A stretch of DNA of 21,832 bases from a virus (lineage: Duplodnaviria; Heunggongvirae; Uroviricota; Caudoviricetes): IMG/VR virus record IMGVR_UViG_2778261247_000008; one strand, written 5' to 3'. Shown here piece after piece: positions 6,999 through 21,603 of the stretch. Within the stretch, counting starts at the first letter, position 1. Every line of letters starts with the position of its first letter. Below the pieces are notes generated by a model. It was not told where the DNA came from. It searched no databases and worked only from the letters and a program-made list of their open reading frames with translations. Made by a program: the position numbers and the translations under genes.

Positions 6999-7202
6999 TC
7001 AATGATGTGAACGCTCAACAGCGATAGTTTTCTGACAATGCTGGGCAATCTCTCGCGACATGTTGATGAGTCGTGAAACCTCACCAATATGTAGGCTGGC
7101 TTCTGGAGAAGCCAGGGTGACGCTAACCAGATCCAGAACGGCGTCAATATCTCTCAAATTTGAATCGAGTTGTTCAAGAGTTGATACGGCTGCTTCAGAC
7201 AT
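6999..7202 (-). CDS. small hypothetical protein (67 aa) preceded by a LexA box; candidate SOS-induced effector such as an antirepressor
   Basis: ORF MSEAAVSTLEQLDSNLRDIDAVLDLVSVTLASPEASLHIGEVSRLINMSREIAQ.... Consensus LexA box about 40 bp upstream; GC hairpin 6973..6992 just downstream. Confidence 0.4.
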   Translation of the reverse strand: MSEAAVSTLEQLDSNLRDIDAVLDLVSVTLASPEASLHIGEVSRLINMSREIAQHCQKTIAVERSHH

Positions 7203-7238: not shown

Positions 7239-7258
7239 TACTGTATAAAATTACAGGA
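7239..7258. promoter_or_regulatory. LexA (SOS) box
   Basis: TACTGTATAAAATTACAGGA has the exact CTGT-N8-ACAG core with an AT-rich spacer; lies in the intergenic gap between two minus-strand genes. Confidence 0.6.
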
Positions 7259-7284: not shown

Positions 7285-7527
7285 TCAATGAATTAACTGC
7301 GTAAACTGCTGTGTGACCCGATACTTATGCTCTCTCCCTATGCCACGATCAACTTTCTCAAGAAGTCCAGTACGGACAGCAGAATCAAGCATCCTTTTAA
7401 CAATTCTGCTATTTAACCCAACATCAAAAGCAAGCATCGAAGCGAAAACAAACCCATCACCACCATCAGAAAAGCTCTTTTCGCTCCGTTTTCGTATCAT
7501 TTCAAAAAGCAATGCCTTTTTATCCAT
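7285..7527 (-). CDS. hypothetical protein (80 aa)
   Basis: ORF MDKKALLFEMIRKRSEKSFSDGGDGFVFASMLAFDVGLNSRIVKRMLDSAVRTGLLEKV... Confidence 0.35.
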   Translation of the reverse strand: MDKKALLFEMIRKRSEKSFSDGGDGFVFASMLAFDVGLNSRIVKRMLDSAVRTGLLEKVDRGIGREHKYRVTQQFTQLIH

Positions 7528-7545
7528 TTATCCCTCCGTGACCAG

Positions 7546-7872
7546 TCACACTTTGAGCGCAAGTTTCAGCCTCGTGGTTGTAAGGTGGCATGACCCTTCG
7601 CCATCAAAAATGCATTCTGAAACAGGCATTTTTTGACCACATCGCGGGCAAGTAGTAGATAGCTGCTTCTGCAGCTCCTTATAGTTTTTCCTGATCAGCA
7701 AACCAATGACTTCGTTCTCCGAATATGGAACTCGCCCTGGTCTACGCAATACACAAATTTCCCCCAACATACGTAACTCGTCAGGTTCTAGAATCCAGTC
7801 CCGTCTTGATGTGCCTTCCTTCTTCAACCGTTCCCTGCGTCTCCTTTGCCGTTCTGCCGGTGTCAGCGCCAT
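7546..7872 (-). CDS. hypothetical protein with arginine-rich N-terminus and C-terminal zinc-ribbon-like cysteines (108 aa)
   Basis: MALTPAERQRRRRERLKKEG... and ...CPRCGQKMPVSECIFDGEGSCH. Confidence 0.4.
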   Translation of the reverse strand: MALTPAERQRRRRERLKKEGTSRRDWILEPDELRMLGEICVLRRPGRVPYSENEVIGLLIRKNYKELQKQLSTTCPRCGQKMPVSECIFDGEGSCHLTTTRLKLALKV

Positions 7873-12167: not shown

Positions 12168-15100
12168 ATGACATTAAACGATTTCTATGCGGATCGCTTT
12201 GGCAGCGATCCGTTCTCGCTAATTGAAGCAGCACGGGATGAACTAACCGAGCTGGCACAGATGGCTGGTATCAACTGGTCTGCCTGTTCCGACAACATCC
12301 AACTCAACCCTCGCGGGGGTGTTGAGCGTTACTCTTCATACAATAAAACATCTCCAGAAGCTCTCGAAAAGAGCCTCAAAGGACGCGTAGAAATTTACTC
12401 CCGGCTGGAACACAGCAAAGGGATTGATTACCCGTTCATTAACTTCGTCCATAAAGGCAGCGATGCTGGCTCATGGAGCGGTTTCTCCTTCCTGTTTTCT
12501 GAATATCGCCGTGAGCAACAACGGAATAATGCGACCGTGGTCGCACAACCGGAAGAAGAACGGGCAAGAATAGAACGTCAGGCCGAAGCACGTCGTCGCC
12601 GTGAAGAACAAAAACGAATTAATGACCTGAAAAACAACCAAATGGACCATGAACGTTTGCTGGGATGGCTGGCATTCCACAGCGCGTGGGAACATGCTCC
12701 TGCAGAAGACGGCTCATGGCCATATGCGATTAAAAAAGGTATTCGTGACGTTTTTAATTCGTGTGATGTGCGTCGCGTGACCAGTCACGACAGCGCAAAA
12801 TGGAGCAGGGGGCCAACCACGTATATGGCTATCCCTCTGGCTCACCTGGACGGTCGTTACGATGGTCGTATTGTGGGTTGGCAGCGAATCGACAAACAAG
12901 GTGGAAAATACCAGACCAGCGCCGTAACCAGCGGCGATTTCGTCGGTGCCTGCTTTGTTATCGGTGAGCTAAAAGGGGCGCAAAACATCGCTGTTACAGA
13001 AGGTTTTGCTACTGGTGCATCCATCTGGCTTGCCACGAAAAAAGATAAACGCTTTGACGCTGTGGTTGTCGCTGTATCCGCTAATAACATGGTTCATGTT
13101 GTGGAACAACTGGTAAACATGTACCCGGCGGCAAAAATCACCTGCGCACTGGATAATGACCGGAAATCAGCCACAGAAGGAAAAGGGAATACCGGCCTGC
13201 GGACTGGCTATGAAATCTTATCGAAATTCAACGATGTCCGCTGCGTCTATCCAACTTTTGAAGACGATCCGCAAATGGAGTGCAGTGACTTCAACGACCT
13301 GCACAAACTGCGTGGACTTCGTGAAACAGCACGTCAACTGTTTGCAACTGCAAACCGCCTGAAAACCGGCACTGATTTGCTATCTCTGACGCTCAACCGC
13401 CTGAAGACAATTAAGCGGGATAACCGTCGTACTTTTGCCAAAGAGCTGCTGAGAGCGGTGGATATTGGCATGCTAACCTGTCCGGTTCCTAACAGTCCGT
13501 CAGACTTATTTAACATGTTCTGCATCGTTCTGCGTGAAATGGGGCTGGAAAATATCTATCGCGCTACGGTAAAAGACCACATTGCCCGTCGCCTGAATAA
13601 AAAGTGCCGTATTGCCCAGGCTCCGCGCTCATTCAGCGAACGCATAACTGATCCCAATAAACGTCCTCAACATATCACCTATAAGCGTTTTGAAACTTCG
13701 GTAATGACCGATGACGTCCTGAAGTATGTGCAATCACTACAGGGGATAGTCATCGTTCGTGCTGGTATGGGTTCCGGCAAATCTACTGGATTGTTACGAC
13801 CTTTAATGCATAGCTCAGAACGTGGTATCTCTGTTGCTCACCGTGTTTCCCTTATTGGTGGCCTGTGGGAAATGATGACAGAAGGAAAAGGTGTAAAAGC
13901 CGATATCCTGCACTATCAGGACCCTGGCTATCAGGAAATGGCTCCATACGCCAGTAAACTGACCATCTGCATAAACTCGATTGTTAAAAACTGCTGGCAA
14001 CCGTTGATGCGCCAGCACGACTATTTTGGCTTTGACGAGGCCACGCAAGGGCTACGTGCCGTTCTTTCCGGTCGGGCTATGGAAAACCCGGTGGCTGTAT
14101 TCAATACGTTAATCGACGCGCTGGCCAGAACGGAACAACACCCAATAATGGTGGATGCTGATGCGAACGATCTGCTGGTTGACCTGGCTGAACTGGCTAT
14201 GAAACGCCGTGAAGAACTAGGTTTACCGGCATGGCTGCAGATCCACGTAATTGAATTACCTGTTGATGTTCGCAACCGCGAAACAGGTGAGCCAATCCGG
14301 GTTTTTTATACAGAAAAAGATCGCATTATGACCGAGGTGGTGAAAGCTGTATCGGATGGCGAAAAAATCATGTTGGCCACCGACAGCTCCACCTTTGCAG
14401 AAGATGTGACAGCCACCCTGAGAATGCATTTTCCTGGTAAGAAATTTCTGTGTGTAAACCAGAAAAACAAACCAGAGCCAGAAGTTGAAGCATTTACCAA
14501 TCAACCGAAAAAGATGGTCAAAAAATACGACGGCCTGATTTATAGCCCGTCTATTTCATCCGGTGTGTCGATTGAGCAAAAACATTTTGACCGTCATTTC
14601 GGCATGTTCTGTGGTGAAGTTGTACCCAGCGACGCAGTGCAAATGCTACGCCGCGACCGTACAGCAAAAGAATTTATTATCGGCTTTGATAAAGCTCGCG
14701 CAAAACGTGAAACTGACCCGCAAAAAATAGAACGAGCATTCGCCCAGGCATTGCTTGCTACCGCAGGCATGAACGGTGAACTGACGGATGTCGTTTTCGA
14801 TGGCGACCGTATATCAATGGGGGTGGCCAATACCGACTTTACCAGGATGAAAATTAAAGCAGCCGCAATTGAAGCGTCTGCGCGTAACGACTACGCCAGC
14901 AACATGATCTGCATCATGCACAGCGACGGTTATAAGGTATCGCCGCTGGCCACCGATTATGCTGCGAATGATATCGGTAAAGATCTGCGTAAAGAAGCGC
15001 GGGATATTGTGTGGGAACAGACACTGGATCTGCATCTCAATACAGAAACTCCACAAGAATCAGAGCGTGAAGAACTGCTAAAAAAACGCGCGCTGACGCT

Positions 15101-17165: not shown

Positions 17166-17978
17166 ATGCGTAACAAAAAAACAACAGCTTTATTACTCTC
17201 TCTCTTGTTATTATCTGGATGCACTTATCAATATGATAATAAGGCATCAACGGACGTTGAGTATAAATTCGAAAAAGAAAAAAGAGTACCTATCAACTCT
17301 GTTGGTGATTTTAGCAGCAAAATACTCACAGGTAAGGAATTTAATAGAATTATTGCATCAAAGATAGATGATGGTTCATGGCGTGGATATATCGTTCACT
17401 CATTAACATACGCGCCATACAACAACGTTTTAACATCTCAAGGTTTGTCTATCCCTAGAAGTATCACATACTCAGGAACATATCTTAACCGTGATTTTGT
17501 TGAGAATAGCGGTAGTGATAGCGTGATAACTTCTCGAGATATGTCTGGATGGTATGGTTTTCATGTTGGTTCTTCTGAAATAACAACGCATGGAAACTAT
17601 GTTGGCGTGAATGCTTTGGGAATATCTGCTGATGTAGAAGTGTTAAACACTTTAGGTGCTGAAATTATCTTTGGCAGCACACAAATAAATAAAGAAAATC
17701 CTGAAACAATATGGGCAGATATTGATATAAAAGGACAAATCCCAAAAGATGTTAATGTAAAAGACCTTAGAATTGAATATTTAGCAAAGATAAATGGGTT
17801 AAGCAGTAATCATATTGATGTAACATCACCTACTATTTTTAACCCGTCAGATATGAGCCATAAAACTCAGGTTTTTATGGGTGAGTTATTAGCAGCACGC
17901 CTGATAAATTTTAAAACGGGAGAAATTTACCCAGTACAGTTAGAGTGGGTGTTCCGTTCGCGTGAGGCTTTCTTATAA
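17166..17978 (+). CDS. lipoprotein (270 aa), AT-rich moron-like gene
   Basis: AAGAGG RBS; signal peptide with lipobox MRNKKTTALLLSLLLLSGC; visibly more AT-rich than its flanks. Confidence 0.65.
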   Translation: MRNKKTTALLLSLLLLSGCTYQYDNKASTDVEYKFEKEKRVPINSVGDFSSKILTGKEFNRIIASKIDDGSWRGYIVHSLTYAPYNNVLTSQGLSIPRSITYSGTYLNRDFVENSGSDSVITSRDMSGWYGFHVGSSEITTHGNYVGVNALGISADVEVLNTLGAEIIFGSTQINKENPETIWADIDIKGQIPKDVNVKDLRIEYLAKINGLSSNHIDVTSPTIFNPSDMSHKTQVFMGELLAARLINFKTGEIYPVQLEWVFRSREAFL

Positions 17979-18039
17979 CGGAACAATAACATTGTTCATG
18001 TTGTGATCAGTTGTTCAAGCAAACTATAAAAACACCTGT

Positions 18040-18073
18040 CCCCGTGACTGGTCACGGGGTAAAATGCTTTTTC
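18040..18073 (+). terminator. GC-rich palindrome followed by a T-run; terminator or protein-binding site downstream of the lipoprotein gene
   Basis: CCCCGTGAC-TG-GTCACGGGG then TAAAATGCTTTTT. Confidence 0.4.
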
Positions 18074-18079
18074 AAATTA

Positions 18080-18109
18080 TTGACGTGTGCGTCGTTTTGA
18101 CGGTAAAGT
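18080..18109 (+). promoter_or_regulatory. candidate promoter of the ant-operon leader
   Basis: TTGACG, 18-nt spacer, TAAAGT. Confidence 0.3.
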
Positions 18110-18116
18110 TACTCCG

Positions 18117-18190
18117 CTGCGGCAAATTCCGCAGCCGGGCGTGAGAACCCGGATAAACGAAGCGCACAACACGCGCCAGCGTGTTTTTTT
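18117..18190 (+). ncRNA. candidate c4-like small regulatory RNA / attenuator transcript in the ant-operon leader
   Basis: Two stem-loops (CTGCGG-CAAATT-CCGCAG; CCGGG-CGTGAGAA-CCCGG) followed by an intrinsic terminator (AACACGC-GCCA-GCGTGTT plus T-run). Loop GUGAGAA is complementary to UUCUCAC at 18275..18281 in the downstream leader. Confidence 0.35.
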
Positions 18191-18356
18191 GTGTGTATAT
18201 ACCTGCGCATATCCGATTTATGGTGGCTCAGGCGGGGCTGACTTCGGTCAGGCCGGTTTCTTCGTTTGCCGGTATTCTCACCCCCGCTTGGGCTACCACC
18301 ATTCAAGAGCGTGAGAACTCTGGTGGTAGCACGACCAATTAAACGGAGTGCATACC

Positions 18357-18521
18357 ATGTTCAAATTCAAATTTGCGGCAGTCGTTCGCACAGACAAAAA
18401 GTCACACATCCATCATCTTTCCACCATCGCGTCATCTGAACGGGAAGCTCGTCGCCAGTTCGCCAGCCGGTTTGTCCTGGTATTGTCTGCCCGTATTCCG
18501 GTGCGCGAGGTGGCTGCATGA
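18357..18521 (+). CDS. small protein (54 aa), first gene of the ant operon; possibly Icd-like
   Basis: MFKFKFAAVVRTDKKSHIHHLSTIASSEREARRQFASRFVLVLSARIPVREVAA; GGAG RBS; ATGA overlap with the next ORF. Not in the ORF track (under 60 aa). Confidence 0.4.
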   Translation: MFKFKFAAVVRTDKKSHIHHLSTIASSEREARRQFASRFVLVLSARIPVREVAA

Positions 18522-18748
18522 ATCAGGTAAAAATGAACACTGTTGGCCTGCTGGAATCGTTGGATGAACGTCTGGATCAGGTCTATGCGCTCGTATCATC
18601 AGCCCATCGGACAGTCTCCAGCTGTGAGGCGTCGATTTATCTCTCAGAAGCAGGGAAACTCCTTCAAATTGCGTGTGAGTTAACACACGAAGCACAGGGG
18701 TATTCAGCATCGCTCTCGTCGCAATTGCTAGGCAAGGAGGCTGAATGA
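18518..18748 (+). CDS. hypothetical protein (76 aa), translationally coupled between the small ORF and ant
   Basis: ATGA overlaps at both ends. Confidence 0.45.
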   Translation: MNQVKMNTVGLLESLDERLDQVYALVSSAHRTVSSCEASIYLSEAGKLLQIACELTHEAQGYSASLSSQLLGKEAE

Positions 18749-19530
18749 GCGCGTTAGCAGTTTTTTCCTTTCAGGATGAGCATCAGATACGTGTAGTGAT
18801 GATTAACGGCGAACCGTGGTTTATTGCTGCTGATATTTGCCGTGCTTTAGGTATAGGGAATCCGACAAAAGCTATAAAAAACTTAGATCATGATGAAGTA
18901 GCCCTTACTTCAATTCAGGGCTTAAGTCGAGGTAATGATAAAGCGAATATTGTCAATGAATCAGGTCTATACACCCTGATCCTCCGCTGCCGTGACGCTG
19001 TAAAACAGGGCACGACCGCGTGGCGTTTTCGTAAATGGGTAACGAACGAGGTCTTGCCCTCTATTCGCAAGAATGGAGAGTACGTTTACGTCGAGCCTGA
19101 GCCAATGCGAGCAGCGGAGCCGTTGAACTGGAGGCAGAAGGAGTATCTGCGAGGGCTGATTAACGATATTGCACAAAGTTTTCAATACCGAAATGCCTGG
19201 ATTAGTGGTGTATGGTTGGCTTTGCGTCGGGCGTGTCGTAATCCATCCCCGAACCCCATAACGGTTGATGATTTGCCAGCAATTACGGCAGAACTGCGCC
19301 GGATTTTGACGGCTGCTGAGTCGGCATTGGGGAACATGCGTACGTATGAACGAGAGTTGTTGCGTGATGTCGTTCGTGGGGGTAGGCGGAGTATGTCGTG
19401 TGGTGATTTGCCCATCACCGATATTAACTCTGATCTGGAAAAGGCGTTACCCGCGCATTTTGAACTGGCAGTTCAAAAACTTGAGCAGTTATCCGCGCAG
19501 TTAAAGCCAGCAGAAATCACTAATAAATAG
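18745..19530 (+). CDS. ant: antirepressor with N-terminal BRO-N/Ant domain
   Basis: N-terminal pattern FSFQDEHQIRVVMINGEPWFIAADICRALGIGNPTKAIKNLDHDE is typical of the Bro-N antirepressor domain. Confidence 0.7.
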   Translation: MSALAVFSFQDEHQIRVVMINGEPWFIAADICRALGIGNPTKAIKNLDHDEVALTSIQGLSRGNDKANIVNESGLYTLILRCRDAVKQGTTAWRFRKWVTNEVLPSIRKNGEYVYVEPEPMRAAEPLNWRQKEYLRGLINDIAQSFQYRNAWISGVWLALRRACRNPSPNPITVDDLPAITAELRRILTAAESALGNMRTYERELLRDVVRGGRRSMSCGDLPITDINSDLEKALPAHFELAVQKLEQLSAQLKPAEITNK

Positions 19531-19666
19531 GGTTGACCAGCCCGAATTTATGCCCTTCTTAGAGAAGGGAAGCCTCGCAGTCGGGGCGGTGATGTCTGTG
19601 GTTGCAGCCGCGTTTCCTCCGTTACTTCTGCCCTTTGCAGGGGGCAGGCGAGGTAGGTCACACAAC

Positions 19667-19690
19667 AAGGCACCGTTAATTCGGTGCCTT
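19667..19690. terminator. hairpin between convergent ant and telN (bidirectional terminator candidate)
   Basis: AAGGCACCG-TTAATT-CGGTGCCTT, 9-bp stem, followed on the plus strand by TACTGTATGCTTT. Confidence 0.5.
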
Positions 19691-19701
19691 TACTGTATGC
19701 T

Positions 19702-21603
19702 TTAACCGAAATATGTCAGCCATGCTAACTGCATTGCTGACATGGGGCTGTTTGCACTGCCGGACCACGCATAATTCTGGCCATTATAATGAAACTCAAC
19801 AACGTATGAGCCATCACCAATATTTCTCACCGGCTTAAATACCGGCTTAGATACAGGCGAAGAAGGTGCAGGCGGTTGCTGTTCTTCTACGCTCTCTTCC
19901 TCTTCCTCTTCCTCTTCCTCTATCTCAATTTCGTCGTCATCCAGATCGTCATCCTCTGATAATTCATCCGCCAGTTCAGGTATTGCTTCCTGTTCTTCTT
20001 CGTCAGGCATAACGATTTCTGGAGTATCTATTTTCAGTTGCCATTGTCCGTTTTCGCCAACAAATTGCCCCAGAGCATCAGCAGCAAATTCCAGGTATCG
20101 ACTAATCATTGTTGGGCTAAATTTGAACGCTCTTAGAGTGCTGTTCGTGATTTTTATAGAGGGGTCCTGCTCTACCAGCTGCTTAACTGTGTTATGCAGA
20201 CGAACCCCGGCATCTCCTCTGGCGAATCCAGGCATTTCGTCATCAAGCTGCTGCAATGCTTCCAGCCTGGTATTTTCGTTTCCAGTATTTGGCCTCCATG
20301 TCTTTGAGAAGTTGGCCAGCTTGAATTGCTTATAGTGTAATTGAGTGTTTTCATCGTCATGGCCTAAAATTTCCATAAAGAAAACATCTTCATCTACATT
20401 TTTCCAACGGGGATCTACGCGGAAAAACATTTCATACGCAATGCGGGCATAAATAGCACGACTATCTTTATAAACACGGCGGTCATCTTTGAAAAATGAT
20501 TTAACCCAGGGGTTAAAAGCCTTTGCTAATATGGCATTAATACGTCCGTTTTCAGACCGTGTATCGTTATCTCCATAACCTTTAACGACATCATCAAAAT
20601 CAGATGCTGCTGGGCATGAGCGAAGTACATTTATTAAATAAACAAATGTTTTTGCCTCACATAATGTATATATTTTTCTGGTTATATCATCAGCAGTTCT
20701 TTTTTTAGCTTGACCTAAAAAATCAACGGTATACTTACCAGAAACAGTAAATGTACCTTGATACATAATCTCAATCATTCGTCTTCCTGACAATGCAGCA
20801 AGTGCAAATGCCAAAGGAGCCATACCTGAACGAGTGTTTAGATTATTTAATGTAGCAGGGCTATTTATAATATCGTAAATAGCTTGCATATATTTAGGGT
20901 AGTCAATGACCACTACGTTACGTTTCTTATTGTGTAGAACGTCCGCCCATCGTTGCTGGATAGATGCGCGTTCTGCAGGGCTTAGTTGGAGATGATAGAG
21001 AATCTCATGGTTAACCTTTAGCTGATTCAACTCCTCAAGCAAGGCAGACCCCTGCTGTAGTAATTTATATAAATAATCGCGCTTATCTTTCCAGTTATCA
21101 CTAATTAAATCAGAAATGGCAAATTGCCACTCTTTATATTTATTTGATAATTTTATTAACTTATTATTACTTTTATTATCACCAATTCTGATATTAGATA
21201 AATCTTCGGACAGAGGAATAATTAATTTTAACTTTGCCTGTAAAGCTGACATTCTCCGGCGAATATCGGCAGCAGGTAGAGAAAGCCATGACAATAGCTC
21301 CTCATTATATAAAGGATACTTTTCAGATAGGCGATATATATTTTTTTCAAAACTATGATGAAGTTTATCATCAAACCGTTTTCTGGCCCTGCTCATATAG
21401 GCATTGAATGTGTTGGCTGTAATTCTTTTTTCTAATCCTTTCCCCCGAAACTTTCGCTTGTCATTAAATAATGCATTTTTAAATTTTAATGCAACGGCCT
21501 TTATTTTTTTTGTTTTCTCCCCTTGAGGACGATCAGAGTTATCTATTGACTCAACATCGCTAACAAGTGAGTTTATTAATTCACCGATTTTTACTTTGCT
21601 CAT
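19702..21603 (-). CDS. telN: protelomerase (telomere resolvase) TelN
   Basis: 633 aa; N-terminus MSKVKIGELINSLV...NALFNDKRKFRGKGLEKRITANTFNAYMSRARKRFDDKLHHSF and C-terminus ...GDGSYVVEFHYNGQNYAWSG match N15 TelN (about 631 aa) as recalled. AGGAG RBS; telRL-like palindrome about 150 bp upstream. Confidence 0.9.
   Translation of the reverse strand: MSKVKIGELINSLVSDVESIDNSDRPQGEKTKKIKAVALKFKNALFNDKRKFRGKGLEKRITANTFNAYMSRARKRFDDKLHHSFEKNIYRLSEKYPLYNEELLSWLSLPAADIRRRMSALQAKLKLIIPLSEDLSNIRIGDNKSNNKLIKLSNKYKEWQFAISDLISDNWKDKRDYLYKLLQQGSALLEELNQLKVNHEILYHLQLSPAERASIQQRWADVLHNKKRNVVVIDYPKYMQAIYDIINSPATLNNLNTRSGMAPLAFALAALSGRRMIEIMYQGTFTVSGKYTVDFLGQAKKRTADDITRKIYTLCEAKTFVYLINVLRSCPAASDFDDVVKGYGDNDTRSENGRINAILAKAFNPWVKSFFKDDRRVYKDSRAIYARIAYEMFFRVDPRWKNVDEDVFFMEILGHDDENTQLHYKQFKLANFSKTWRPNTGNENTRLEALQQLDDEMPGFARGDAGVRLHNTVKQLVEQDPSIKITNSTLRAFKFSPTMISRYLEFAADALGQFVGENGQWQLKIDTPEIVMPDEEEQEAIPELADELSEDDDLDDDEIEIEEEEEEEEESVEEQQPPAPSSPVSKPVFKPVRNIGDGSYVVEFHYNGQNYAWSGSANSPMSAMQLAWLTYFG
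19893..19920. repeat. hexanucleotide tandem repeat (TCTTCC)x4 inside telN, encoding a poly-Glu run
   Basis: Four perfect TCTTCC units on the plus strand = (GGAAGA)n on the coding strand = EEEEEEEEE in the acidic linker. Confidence 0.85.

Follow-up and report, generated by a model that had tools for sequence, protein, structure and literature searches.

We analysed the locus at positions 18080-19530 of a 21,832-nt stretch of viral DNA (IMG/VR record IMGVR_UViG_2778261247_000008, Caudoviricetes; hereafter the window). On the plus strand, a promoter-like site is followed by a structured leader and three overlapping genes, icd, antA, and antB, which converge with telN. Judged by its sequence, the locus is an ortholog of the immA anti-immunity operon of phage N15 (icd-antA-antB beside telN), and its leader carries a C4-type antisense RNA with complementary sites on both sides. 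Systems of this kind are already known from N15, P1/P7, P4, and Gifsy-1, and three Rfam families cover them. The N15 immA operon with its CA RNA was reportedly described by Ravin, Svarchevsky and Deho in 1999, and the P1/P7 immI region with c4 antisense RNA, icd, and ant1/ant2 is said to have been described by Citron and Schuster in 1990. The genes of immA are given as icd, antA, and antB in the literature (PMC4488713).

Compared with known elements, the window is part of an N15-type linear phage-plasmid. The 633-aa protein encoded on the minus strand at 19702-21603 contains all four TelK/ResT protelomerase Pfam domains, which identifies the gene convergent with the operon as telN. When the region 17980-19700 was compared with N15-like phages, YDC107_1 showed 91% identity over 92% of the query and N15 showed 81% over the leader and icd. 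The leader itself (18060-18370) is 100% identical to NZ_CP055678.1, a 47-kb linear plasmid of Escherichia fergusonii. The N15 record labels the counterpart region with the old name ‘cA secondary immunity repressor’, marks a rho-independent terminator there as putative, and lists genes 32, 31, and 30, which run convergently to the telomerase gene; the window leader is approximately 79-81% identical to this cA, terminator, and gp32-gp31-gp30 region. N15 immA (AF064539, genes 32-30) is thus a direct ortholog, with the promoter position, an isrK-like element and terminator, C4, the coupled icd-antA-antB genes, and the convergent telN in common. The genes upstream of immA differ between the two.

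The three genes of the operon were identified by profile matches and by their identity to N15 proteins over full length. The 54-aa product of icd (18357-18521) is Icd-like, a host cell division inhibitor by family (NCBIfam NF033153, phage_ICD_like, 67 bits), and is 94% identical to N15 Icd (gp32). The 76-aa AntA (18518-18748) is 62% identical to gp31 and belongs to PHROG 10889, ‘anti-repressor’, while the 261-aa AntB (18745-19530) is 75% identical to gp30, matches Pfam Bro-N with 75.7 bits, and belongs to PHROG 130, Ant. Adjacent genes overlap by ATGA, the antA start with the icd stop at 18518 and the antB start with the antA stop at 18745. The corresponding proteins of phiKO2 are named Icd-like, AntA (antirepressor; the note to Gp28 reads ‘antirepressor AntA’), and AntB (auxiliary antirepressor). 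An initial annotation, made by a model from the letters of the DNA, had called the BRO-N protein Ant; the domain and the ant type stand, but by N15 and phiKO2 annotation the name antirepressor belongs properly to the 76-aa AntA, with AntB, the BRO-N protein, in an auxiliary role. On the basis of annotation and literature, AntA would antagonise the prophage repressor and Icd would block cell division. BLASTP produced no alignment between Icd of the window and P1 Icd, no meaningful similarity between AntB and P1 Ant1 (E = 0.14), and no significant similarity between AntB and Gifsy-1 AnrP. As a result, the RNA cassette is seen to be conserved while its cargo differs, and the initial label ‘P1 immI-like’ is apt for the RNA cassette and layout but not for the proteins, the true family being N15 immA.

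Transcription of the operon can be assigned to a promoter-like site at 18080-18109, the equivalent of N15 Pa, with a -35 hexamer TTGACG (18080-85), an 18-nt spacer, and a -10 hexamer TAAAGT (18104-09); we infer a start near G18116. Relative to the start of the leader, both hexamers hold the same position in nearly all 17 relatives, and the P1 record has promoter P1c4 (P51b) annotated at the equivalent place. Next comes a 5′ leader element (18116-18190), homologous to IsrK, P4 seqA, and c4-a1b1, which comprises hairpin 1 (18116-22/18129-35), hairpin 2 (18136-39/18148-51), a linker, and a Rho-independent terminator (18168-18190). The terminator has a 7-bp stem (18168-74/18179-85), a GCCA loop, and a run of seven U residues, and its hairpin is worth -10 kcal/mol. 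It is strong by sequence, making a short RNA that ends there a predicted species, as would be expected for a relative of IsrK, an Hfq-binding RNA; the N15 and phiKO2 records annotate a terminator at the equivalent place. It must nevertheless allow some read-through, since both C4 and the genes lie beyond it. The loop of hairpin 1 (18123-18128) is strongly conserved; it reads CAAAUU in the window and CAAAAU in most relatives, with two A residues invariant in 16/16 aligned sequences; no complementary partner for this loop was found within C4 or the leader.

To classify the RNA elements, the window was scanned against Rfam at the curated gathering thresholds and again with permissive settings; three families pass. 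Family isrK (RF01394) matches 18116-18189 with 68.1 bits against a threshold of 50, and c4-a1b1 (RF03163, ‘a1, b1 targets of C4 antisense RNA’) matches 18103-18155 with 48.8 bits against 46.7. The strongest match is that of C4 (RF01695) to 18216-18303, at 82.2 bits against a threshold of 45 and spanning model positions 1-87 of 87. The C4 element is closed by a 17-bp stem (18221-37/18282-98; 100% paired in homologs, 7/17 pairs changed on both sides) and contains a UUCG hairpin (18238-42/18247-51; five pairs, 100% paired, 4/5 changed on both sides) and a hairpin 2 (18252-57/18268-73; 97.9% paired). By analogy with the annotated 77-nt c4 of P1, the mature RNA would span approximately 18222-18300 (79 nt). 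The 5′ element, located 26 nt upstream of C4, has sites complementary to both of its antisense segments. The same order, isrK-like element then C4, is found in all 17 relatives fetched, including N15, PY54, phiKO2, P4, and an Stx2 phage, as well as in Gifsy-1 and in P1, although for P1 isrK reaches 35.1 bits, short of the gathering threshold.

Matches to C4 are often covered by protein annotations. In NZ_CP055678.1, a 40-aa ‘ash family protein’ coding sequence (18220-18342 in window positions) spans the C4 RNA, and the RNA genes are unannotated. Coding sequences are likewise called over C4 in N15 (‘cA’, with gene 32 extended over C4), P4 (‘cI gene product’), phiKO2 (Gp30), and KpLi5. When the C4 part alone (18216-18330; query positions 157-271) was used as query, it matched approximately 1,600 plasmid records at about 76% identity. 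These are mostly conjugative plasmids of Escherichia or Salmonella, often with an ‘ash family protein’ coding sequence over the match, and C4-family RNAs appear to be widespread on conjugative plasmids outside phages.

Two segments of C4, here called a′ and b′, are each complementary to one site in the 5′ element and one site downstream. Segment a′ (UUCUCAC, 18275-18281) lies in the single-stranded junction of C4 and can form seven pairs with each of a1 and a2. Site a1 (GUGAGAA, 18141-18147) occupies the loop of hairpin 2 of the 5′ element, while a2 (GUGAGAA, 18311-17) is presented in the loop of a small AGAG/CUCU hairpin (18306-18321; four pairs, 100% paired). Segment b′ (CUUCGUUUG, 18260-18268), in the hairpin-2 loop of C4, can form nine pairs with b1 (UAAACGAAG, 18154-18162), which lies in the linker before the terminator, and nine with b2 (UAAACGGAG, 18340-18348). 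The latter contains the Shine-Dalgarno (SD) sequence of icd, GGAG at 18345-48, 8 nt before the ATG. Calculated duplex energies are -11.2 kcal/mol for b′ with b1, -9.1 kcal/mol for b′ with b2, and -9.2 kcal/mol for a′ with either a1 or a2. The repetition of GUGAGAA is more than expected by chance: three of the five GTGAGAA matches on both strands of the 21.8-kb window cluster within 177 nt, and TAAACGRAG has just two occurrences in the window, at b1 and b2.

The leader can also form a long-range helix between GCTACCACC (= GCUACCACC, 18292-300) and GGTGGTAGC (= GGUGGUAGC, 18322-30), with nine perfect pairs. This helix and the closing stem of C4 are mutually exclusive because the strand 18292-98 is common to both. 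The initial annotation had described it as ending at the ribosome-binding site of the first gene; the pairing is confirmed, but the helix ends 15 nt before the SD sequence of icd, whose ATG is at 18357. Other elements that it had listed, namely the promoter, the stem-loops, the terminator, the UUCG hairpin, the repeated GUGAGAA and its complement UUCUCAC, and the ATGA overlaps, are all present where it had placed them. Its recognition of a c4/CA-RNA-type antirepressor operon with three translationally coupled genes is borne out by the C4, isrK, and c4-a1b1 matches, as is the complementarity of GUGAGAA, UUCUCAC, and GUGAGAA, which is real, corresponds to P1 a1/a′/a2, and co-varies across 18 loci. 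The roles, however, need to be exchanged. A covariance-model search with Rfam C4 does find a match in the leader, but downstream of the approximately 74-nt terminated RNA that had been proposed to be c4-like, and in the UUCG-hairpin region that had been treated as passive leader. The 74-nt RNA (18116-18189), which matches isrK and c4-a1b1, is the upstream element bearing C4 target sites and not a c4-like RNA. Since C4 lies at 18216-18303, the GUGAGAA in the small-RNA loop is target a1 and UUCUCAC is antisense segment a′. The 17-bp closing stem of C4 and the second triple, b1/b′/b2, were absent from that annotation.

The site names used here follow the nomenclature of P1 and were transferred from its annotated record (NC_005856) and from the Rfam alignments. 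That record annotates a1, b1, c4 (77 nt), a2, b2, icd, and ant1/2 at matching structural positions. The hairpin-2 loop holds a1, and b1 follows in the linker that precedes a terminator-like hairpin. Within c4, b′ occupies the loop of hairpin 2 and a′ the junction that comes after it; a2 is just 3′ of c4. Site b2 overlaps the SD sequence of icd, as it does in the window, and is annotated ‘repression of icd ant translation’. The order of parts in P1 immI, from the promoter through a1, b1, the terminator-like hairpin, c4, a2, b2, and icd to the antirepressor, is therefore that of the window, and P1 c4 and c4-a1b1 are founding members of the Rfam families that match it. In contrast to the two separate ant genes of the window, P1 produces nested Ant1 and Ant2 from one gene. 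In addition, a C1 operator (Op51) overlaps the P1 promoter, whereas none is recognisable in the window; no counterpart of P1 C1 is known in N15-like phages.

Comparison of the sites in 18 loci (the window and 17 relatives) provides strong comparative evidence for pairing, in that both triples change jointly. The a sites vary in concert through seven sequences and the b sites through about ten, and P1 and Gifsy-1 contribute further types. The a1/a′ pair is GUGAGAA/UUCUCAC in the window, P4, and others; UCUCAAC/GUUGAGA in N15 and YDC107; UCGCAA/UUGCGA in PhiR46 and Kpn74; GUAGGAA/UUCCUAC in PY54, phiKO2, and others; UUGGAAC/GUUCCAA in 020009; GUCGAAA/UUUCGAC in ARM81ld; and UUAGGAC/GUCCUAA in the Stx2 phage. 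Despite this variation, contiguous complementarity between cognate partners is 7-8 nt for both a′:a1 and a′:a2 in 18/18 loci. It is 7-11 nt for b′:b1, again in 18/18, and 4-10 nt for b′:b2, with mean runs of 8.8 and 7.7 nt, respectively. Non-cognate combinations reach means of 4.2-6.0 nt, and for none of the four pairings did any of 20000 partner permutations attain the mean that was observed. Formal covariation was calculated on a 16-sequence MAFFT alignment. There, 97.3% of the a′:a2 cells are paired and 30 are changed on both sides (covariation 0.711 vs 0.153 in shuffles); for a1:a′ the figures are 93.8% and 26 (0.612 vs 0.130). A matrix of cognate and non-cognate RNAduplex energies for whole segments was discarded as too noisy (the downstream target was best with its cognate in 5/18 rows), because the conserved GGCCGG/CCGGG stems cross-pair.

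Among telomere phage-plasmids, each site assorts independently of the other, so that a and b types form a mosaic. For example, a Salmonella plasmid combines the b type of the window with another a type, and a Citrobacter freundii plasmid shows the reverse. The a type of the window recurs exactly in satellite P4 and in a number of Klebsiella and Citrobacter elements, while its b type is common to a different set. In these alignments, this suggests modular exchange of immunity specificity, with half-site cross-talk being possible. N15 differs from the window at both sites, with UCUCAAC/GUUGAGA and ACAAGAAG/CUUCUUGU instead of GUGAGAA/UUCUCAC and UAAACGAAG/CUUCGUUUG, and the two should therefore be heteroimmune at immA.

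The folds of the leader are conserved as well. Across the 16 homologs, 98% of cells in the leader helices are paired and 19 pairs are changed on both sides, a result matched by 0/500 shuffles; the whole leader also folds far better than shuffled sequences (z = -6.1). In hairpin 1 of the 5′ element, 5/7 pairs are changed on both sides. Hairpin 2 of that element and much of the terminator are uninformative for covariation because they are nearly invariant. The alternative long-range helix is itself 95.8% paired, with 5/9 pairs changed on both sides (e.g. GCUAUCGCC/GGCGAUAGC in P4).

Two further systems are close to that of the window. Satellite P4 resembles the window in its isrK-like seqA, its C4-family CI RNA, its a sites (GUGAGAA/UUCUCAC/GUGAGAA), and its co-varying alternative helix, and its first downstream open reading frame (ORF) is 50% identical to Icd of the window. 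It differs in having 107 nt rather than 26 nt between the 5′ element and the antisense RNA and in its b site (UUCACAGG/CCUGUGAA). The P4 system provides primary immunity and controls replication genes, not an antirepressor. The IsrK/STnc1160/orf45-anrP region of Gifsy-1 (34131-34316, minus strand) likewise has isrK (79 bits) and C4 (69 bits) matches, an a2 site, and a b2 site over the SD sequence of anrP, an antirepressor-like gene. Unlike the window, Gifsy-1 is an integrated lambdoid prophage without icd or antA, and C4 lies directly before anrP. The correspondence of these RNAs has been recognised before: Barquist et al. equate the IsrK-like RNA with seqA and C4 with CI RNA and point out RNA systems of similar structure in P1, P7, and N15 (PMC3632133).

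In the experimental study of Gifsy-1 by Hershko-Shalev et al. (2016), the C4 region is labelled as coding (orf45) and IsrK as an activator, IsrK is likened to P4 seqA, and a processed RNA of approximately 80 nt, STnc1160, is detected from the ‘orf45’ region (PMC4825925). The mutations made there can be placed on the sites defined here. G28 and G31, counted from the IsrK 5′ end, fall in the hairpin-2 loop UUGGCG, which is a1, and C162 and C159 fall in the C4 junction CGCCAA, which is a′. The numbering is consistent (28 + 162 = 31 + 159 = 190), and the ‘helix b-I’ pairs G28A/C162U and G31A/C159U are thus a1:a′. Each of G28A, G31A, C162U, and C159U derepresses translation of anrP, from approximately 4 to 93-926 Miller units (PMC4825925). 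Taken together, the Gifsy-1 data show that the a1/b1 element can act both in cis, in repression, and in trans, in activation.

On this basis, the locus is very probably the immA operon of an N15-like phage-plasmid in which a processed C4/CA RNA pairs with a2 and b2 and blocks translation of icd and, with it, that of antA and antB. The constitutive-looking promoter at 18080-18109 would start transcripts near 18116, most of which would stop at 18168-90 to give an RNA of approximately 75 nt with a1 and b1. Transcripts that read through would contain the C4/CA RNA (~18222-18300), a2 and b2, and icd-antA-antB. The leader would then be cut to release C4; in P1, P7, and P4, RNase P makes the 5′ end of the C4-type RNA and the 3′ end is trimmed. 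On the mRNA, b2 would be bound by the exposed loop segment b′ of C4 hairpin 2 and a2 by the exposed junction segment a′. Because b2 contains the SD sequence of icd, this gene would remain untranslated. Given the ATGA coupling to icd and an untranslated leader exposed to Rho, the effect would be polar: antA and antB would stay off and the prophage repressor would not be antagonised. In P1, c4 was reportedly described in 1992, by Biere, Citron and Schuster, as repressing icd translation with consequent Rho-dependent termination. Sites a1 and b1 would serve as a second cognate partner of the C4 segments, either aiding repression in cis or titrating C4 through the short RNA. The sequence comparisons establish which part is which, the orthology to N15, the folds, and the joint evolution of the sites, whereas processing, SD occlusion, polarity, and the sign of the a1/b1 effect are inferred.

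Some observations weigh against this account. The division that it makes between translational block and premature termination rests on background on these systems and on the annotations of records. The permutation and shuffle tests ignore phylogeny, and their weight depends on the number of independent site classes. Nested cofolding by RNAcofold, in which C4 was combined with either the short RNA or the mRNA start, gives almost no net gain (free-energy difference approximately -0.7 kcal/mol), a result that is uninformative because pseudoknotted loop-loop kissing cannot be modelled in this way. In the minimum-free-energy fold of the unprocessed leader, the C4 fold is not present; instead, the alternative helix is formed and a1/b1 pair with a′/b′ in cis. 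Formation of C4 must consequently need co-transcriptional folding or processing. The fold of the unprocessed leader resembles ‘structure A’ of the Gifsy-1 study; in that study, compensating double mutants of a1 and a′ did not regain full repression (PMC4825925). Incomplete compensation fits a three-site model but means that the logic is not simple.

Among other explanations, it is very improbable that the terminated RNA of approximately 74 nt is a c4-like antisense repressor whose GUGAGAA loop pairs with UUCUCAC and shuts off ant. The complementarity is real and co-varying, the RNA is a discrete terminated transcript by prediction, and its Gifsy-1 homolog IsrK acts in trans (PMC4825925). Against this, it is the downstream element that matches Rfam C4, while the short RNA matches the a1/b1-target and isrK families; moreover, GUGAGAA has the sense of a2, the SD-proximal site, so the short RNA cannot pair with a2/b2, and its one possible partner is C4. 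IsrK also has the opposite effect, raising translation of the antirepressor 139-fold (PMC4825925). Positive control of the IsrK type, in which the short RNA in trans, as a decoy for the antisense RNA or as a remodeller, binds a′/b′ of C4 or of the read-through transcript and frees a2/b2 and the SD sequence of icd, is a more credible proposition, short of an expectation, and could operate alongside repression by C4. If it does, the ratio of terminated to read-through transcripts would set antirepressor output. The 68-bit match of the 5′ element to the isrK model, the slightly better pairing of b′ with b1 than with b2 (one fewer G-U pair), and the longer b′:b1 runs across loci are consistent with it. 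In Gifsy-1, the 139-fold effect on anrP was obtained with IsrK supplied in trans, and the a1 mutants G28A and G31A were inactive in this role (PMC4825925). However, a1 mutations in cis raise translation in Gifsy-1, which indicates that a1 also contributes to repression (PMC4825925), and in P4 the establishment of immunity reportedly requires the IsrK-like seqA (PMC3632133).

We consider it rather unlikely that the pairing of C4 with its flanking sites on nascent transcripts mainly causes premature transcription termination. This is reportedly the mode of the N15 CA RNA, and a strong terminator stands immediately 3′ of b1. According to the IsrK study, pairing of P4 CI RNA with seqA and seqC leads to termination, and IsrK in trans raised transcription 8-fold in addition to translation (PMC4825925). 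On the other hand, b2 overlaps the SD sequence in most relatives as well as in P1, P4, Gifsy-1, and the window. This overlap suggests that translation is what is targeted directly, and termination can follow from uncoupling. No convincing antiterminator for b′:b1 to disrupt was found in the leader; the pairing of GCGC at 18161-64 with GCGC at 18172-75 was rejected, as it has 4 bp and is not conserved in YDC107. Least credible of all is a small regulatory protein encoded at 18220-18342 (‘ash family’ as called by PGAP, N15 ‘cA’, P4 ‘cI gene product’, Gifsy-1 ‘orf45’). The 40-aa ORF is open and annotated in the identical plasmid record, comparable coding sequences are found in the N15 and P4 records, and a tagged version of the orf45 protein was detected in Gifsy-1 (PMC4825925). 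In the relatives, however, the ORF that crosses C4 from the conserved ATG can be as short as 8 aa or as long as 115 aa, its frame is altered beyond hairpin 2, and its stop, counted from the first gene, falls at positions between -106 and +211 nt, while substitutions are compensatory in the RNA stems. No SD sequence precedes ATG 18220, and the IsrK authors themselves note nucleotide but not amino-acid conservation (PMC4825925). Across the relatives, the ORF is not conserved as a coding sequence.

At its 3′ end, the operon is probably closed by a bidirectional terminator, a hairpin of AAGGCACCG-UUAAUU-CGGUGCCUU at 19667-19690 between antB and the convergent telN (-16.5 kcal/mol). A ‘putative bidirectional terminator’ is annotated at the equivalent place in phiKO2; the consensus terminator scan did not flag the hairpin because its U run is short. 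The antB-telN intergenic region as a whole (19531-19701, 171 nt) folds at -70.4 kcal/mol (z = -2.8), with several GC-rich hairpins before the terminal one, and has no Rfam match. In Gifsy-1, the small RNA isrJ occupies the equivalent position after the antirepressor gene anrP.

The position directly upstream of immA looks like a variable accessory-gene slot. In the window it is occupied by a 270-aa ORF (17166-17978) with a lipoprotein-like N-terminus (LLLLSGC) and no match in Pfam, NCBIfam, or PHROG. Unrelated genes are found there in other elements, including gp33-36 in N15, a ‘Spackle exclusion protein’ in PhiR46, a serine acetyltransferase in C. freundii, and a 377-aa minus-strand gene in 48ST307. 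In the closely related phage YDC107_1 (CP025712.1), two regions match the leader and icd, the second icd copy (40012-40173) being 100% identical, and the cassette appears to be duplicated. Just upstream of the promoter there is also a copy of the palindrome GTGACTGGTCAC, which occurs exactly three times in the window (18040-18059, 7538-7549, and 12777-12788), with approximately one match expected even when two mismatches are allowed. The first copy, CCCCGTGACTGGTCACGGGG, precedes the immA -35 hexamer by 20 bp, a position at which most N15-like relatives, including N15, have also kept it. Of the others, one is within repA and one is immediately before the ribosome-binding site of the minus-strand ORF 7285-7527. 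The palindrome could be an operator or a hairpin; an identity with the N15 SopB centromere repeats was rejected, as N15 IR1-4 read GTGCGACCNNGGTCGCAC.

No LexA box was found at the immA promoter. The sole perfect LexA-type box in the window (CTGT-N8-ACAG; CTGTATAAAATTACAG, 7241-7256) is located approximately 40 nt upstream of a 67-aa minus-strand ORF (6999-7202). This ORF has an unannotated N15 homolog (39619-39807, 56% identity), is the counterpart of phiKO2 Gp47, and is without similarity to AntA. It is a candidate for AntC, an SOS-controlled antirepressor that has been described in N15.

The practical value of this analysis is in annotation, and what is known of the biology of these systems is unchanged by its naming results. 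Three RNA elements are unlabelled and a spurious ‘ash family protein’ coding sequence is present in the identical public record, while old protein labels (cA, cI, ‘transcriptional repressor’) persist in the records of N15, P4, PY54, and phiKO2. The comparison also unites three nomenclatures: a1/b1/c4/a2/b2 of P1, seqA/CI/seqC of P4, and IsrK/orf45/STnc1160 of Gifsy-1. Speculatively, one promoter of the N15-type leader could give rise to two opposing RNAs, an abundant a1/b1 decoy, homologous to IsrK, and a rarer C4 repressor derived from read-through, while each pairing site would act as an ‘immunity barcode’ that can be exchanged without the other. If so, terminator efficiency, rather than promoter activity, would set antirepressor output. 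Given that the a types of the window and P4 are identical, half-site cross-talk would be possible between co-resident elements. Correctly labelled, the leader marks a locus that probably governs anti-immunity and heteroimmunity in a family of telomere phage-plasmids that Escherichia, Klebsiella, Citrobacter, and Salmonella commonly carry.

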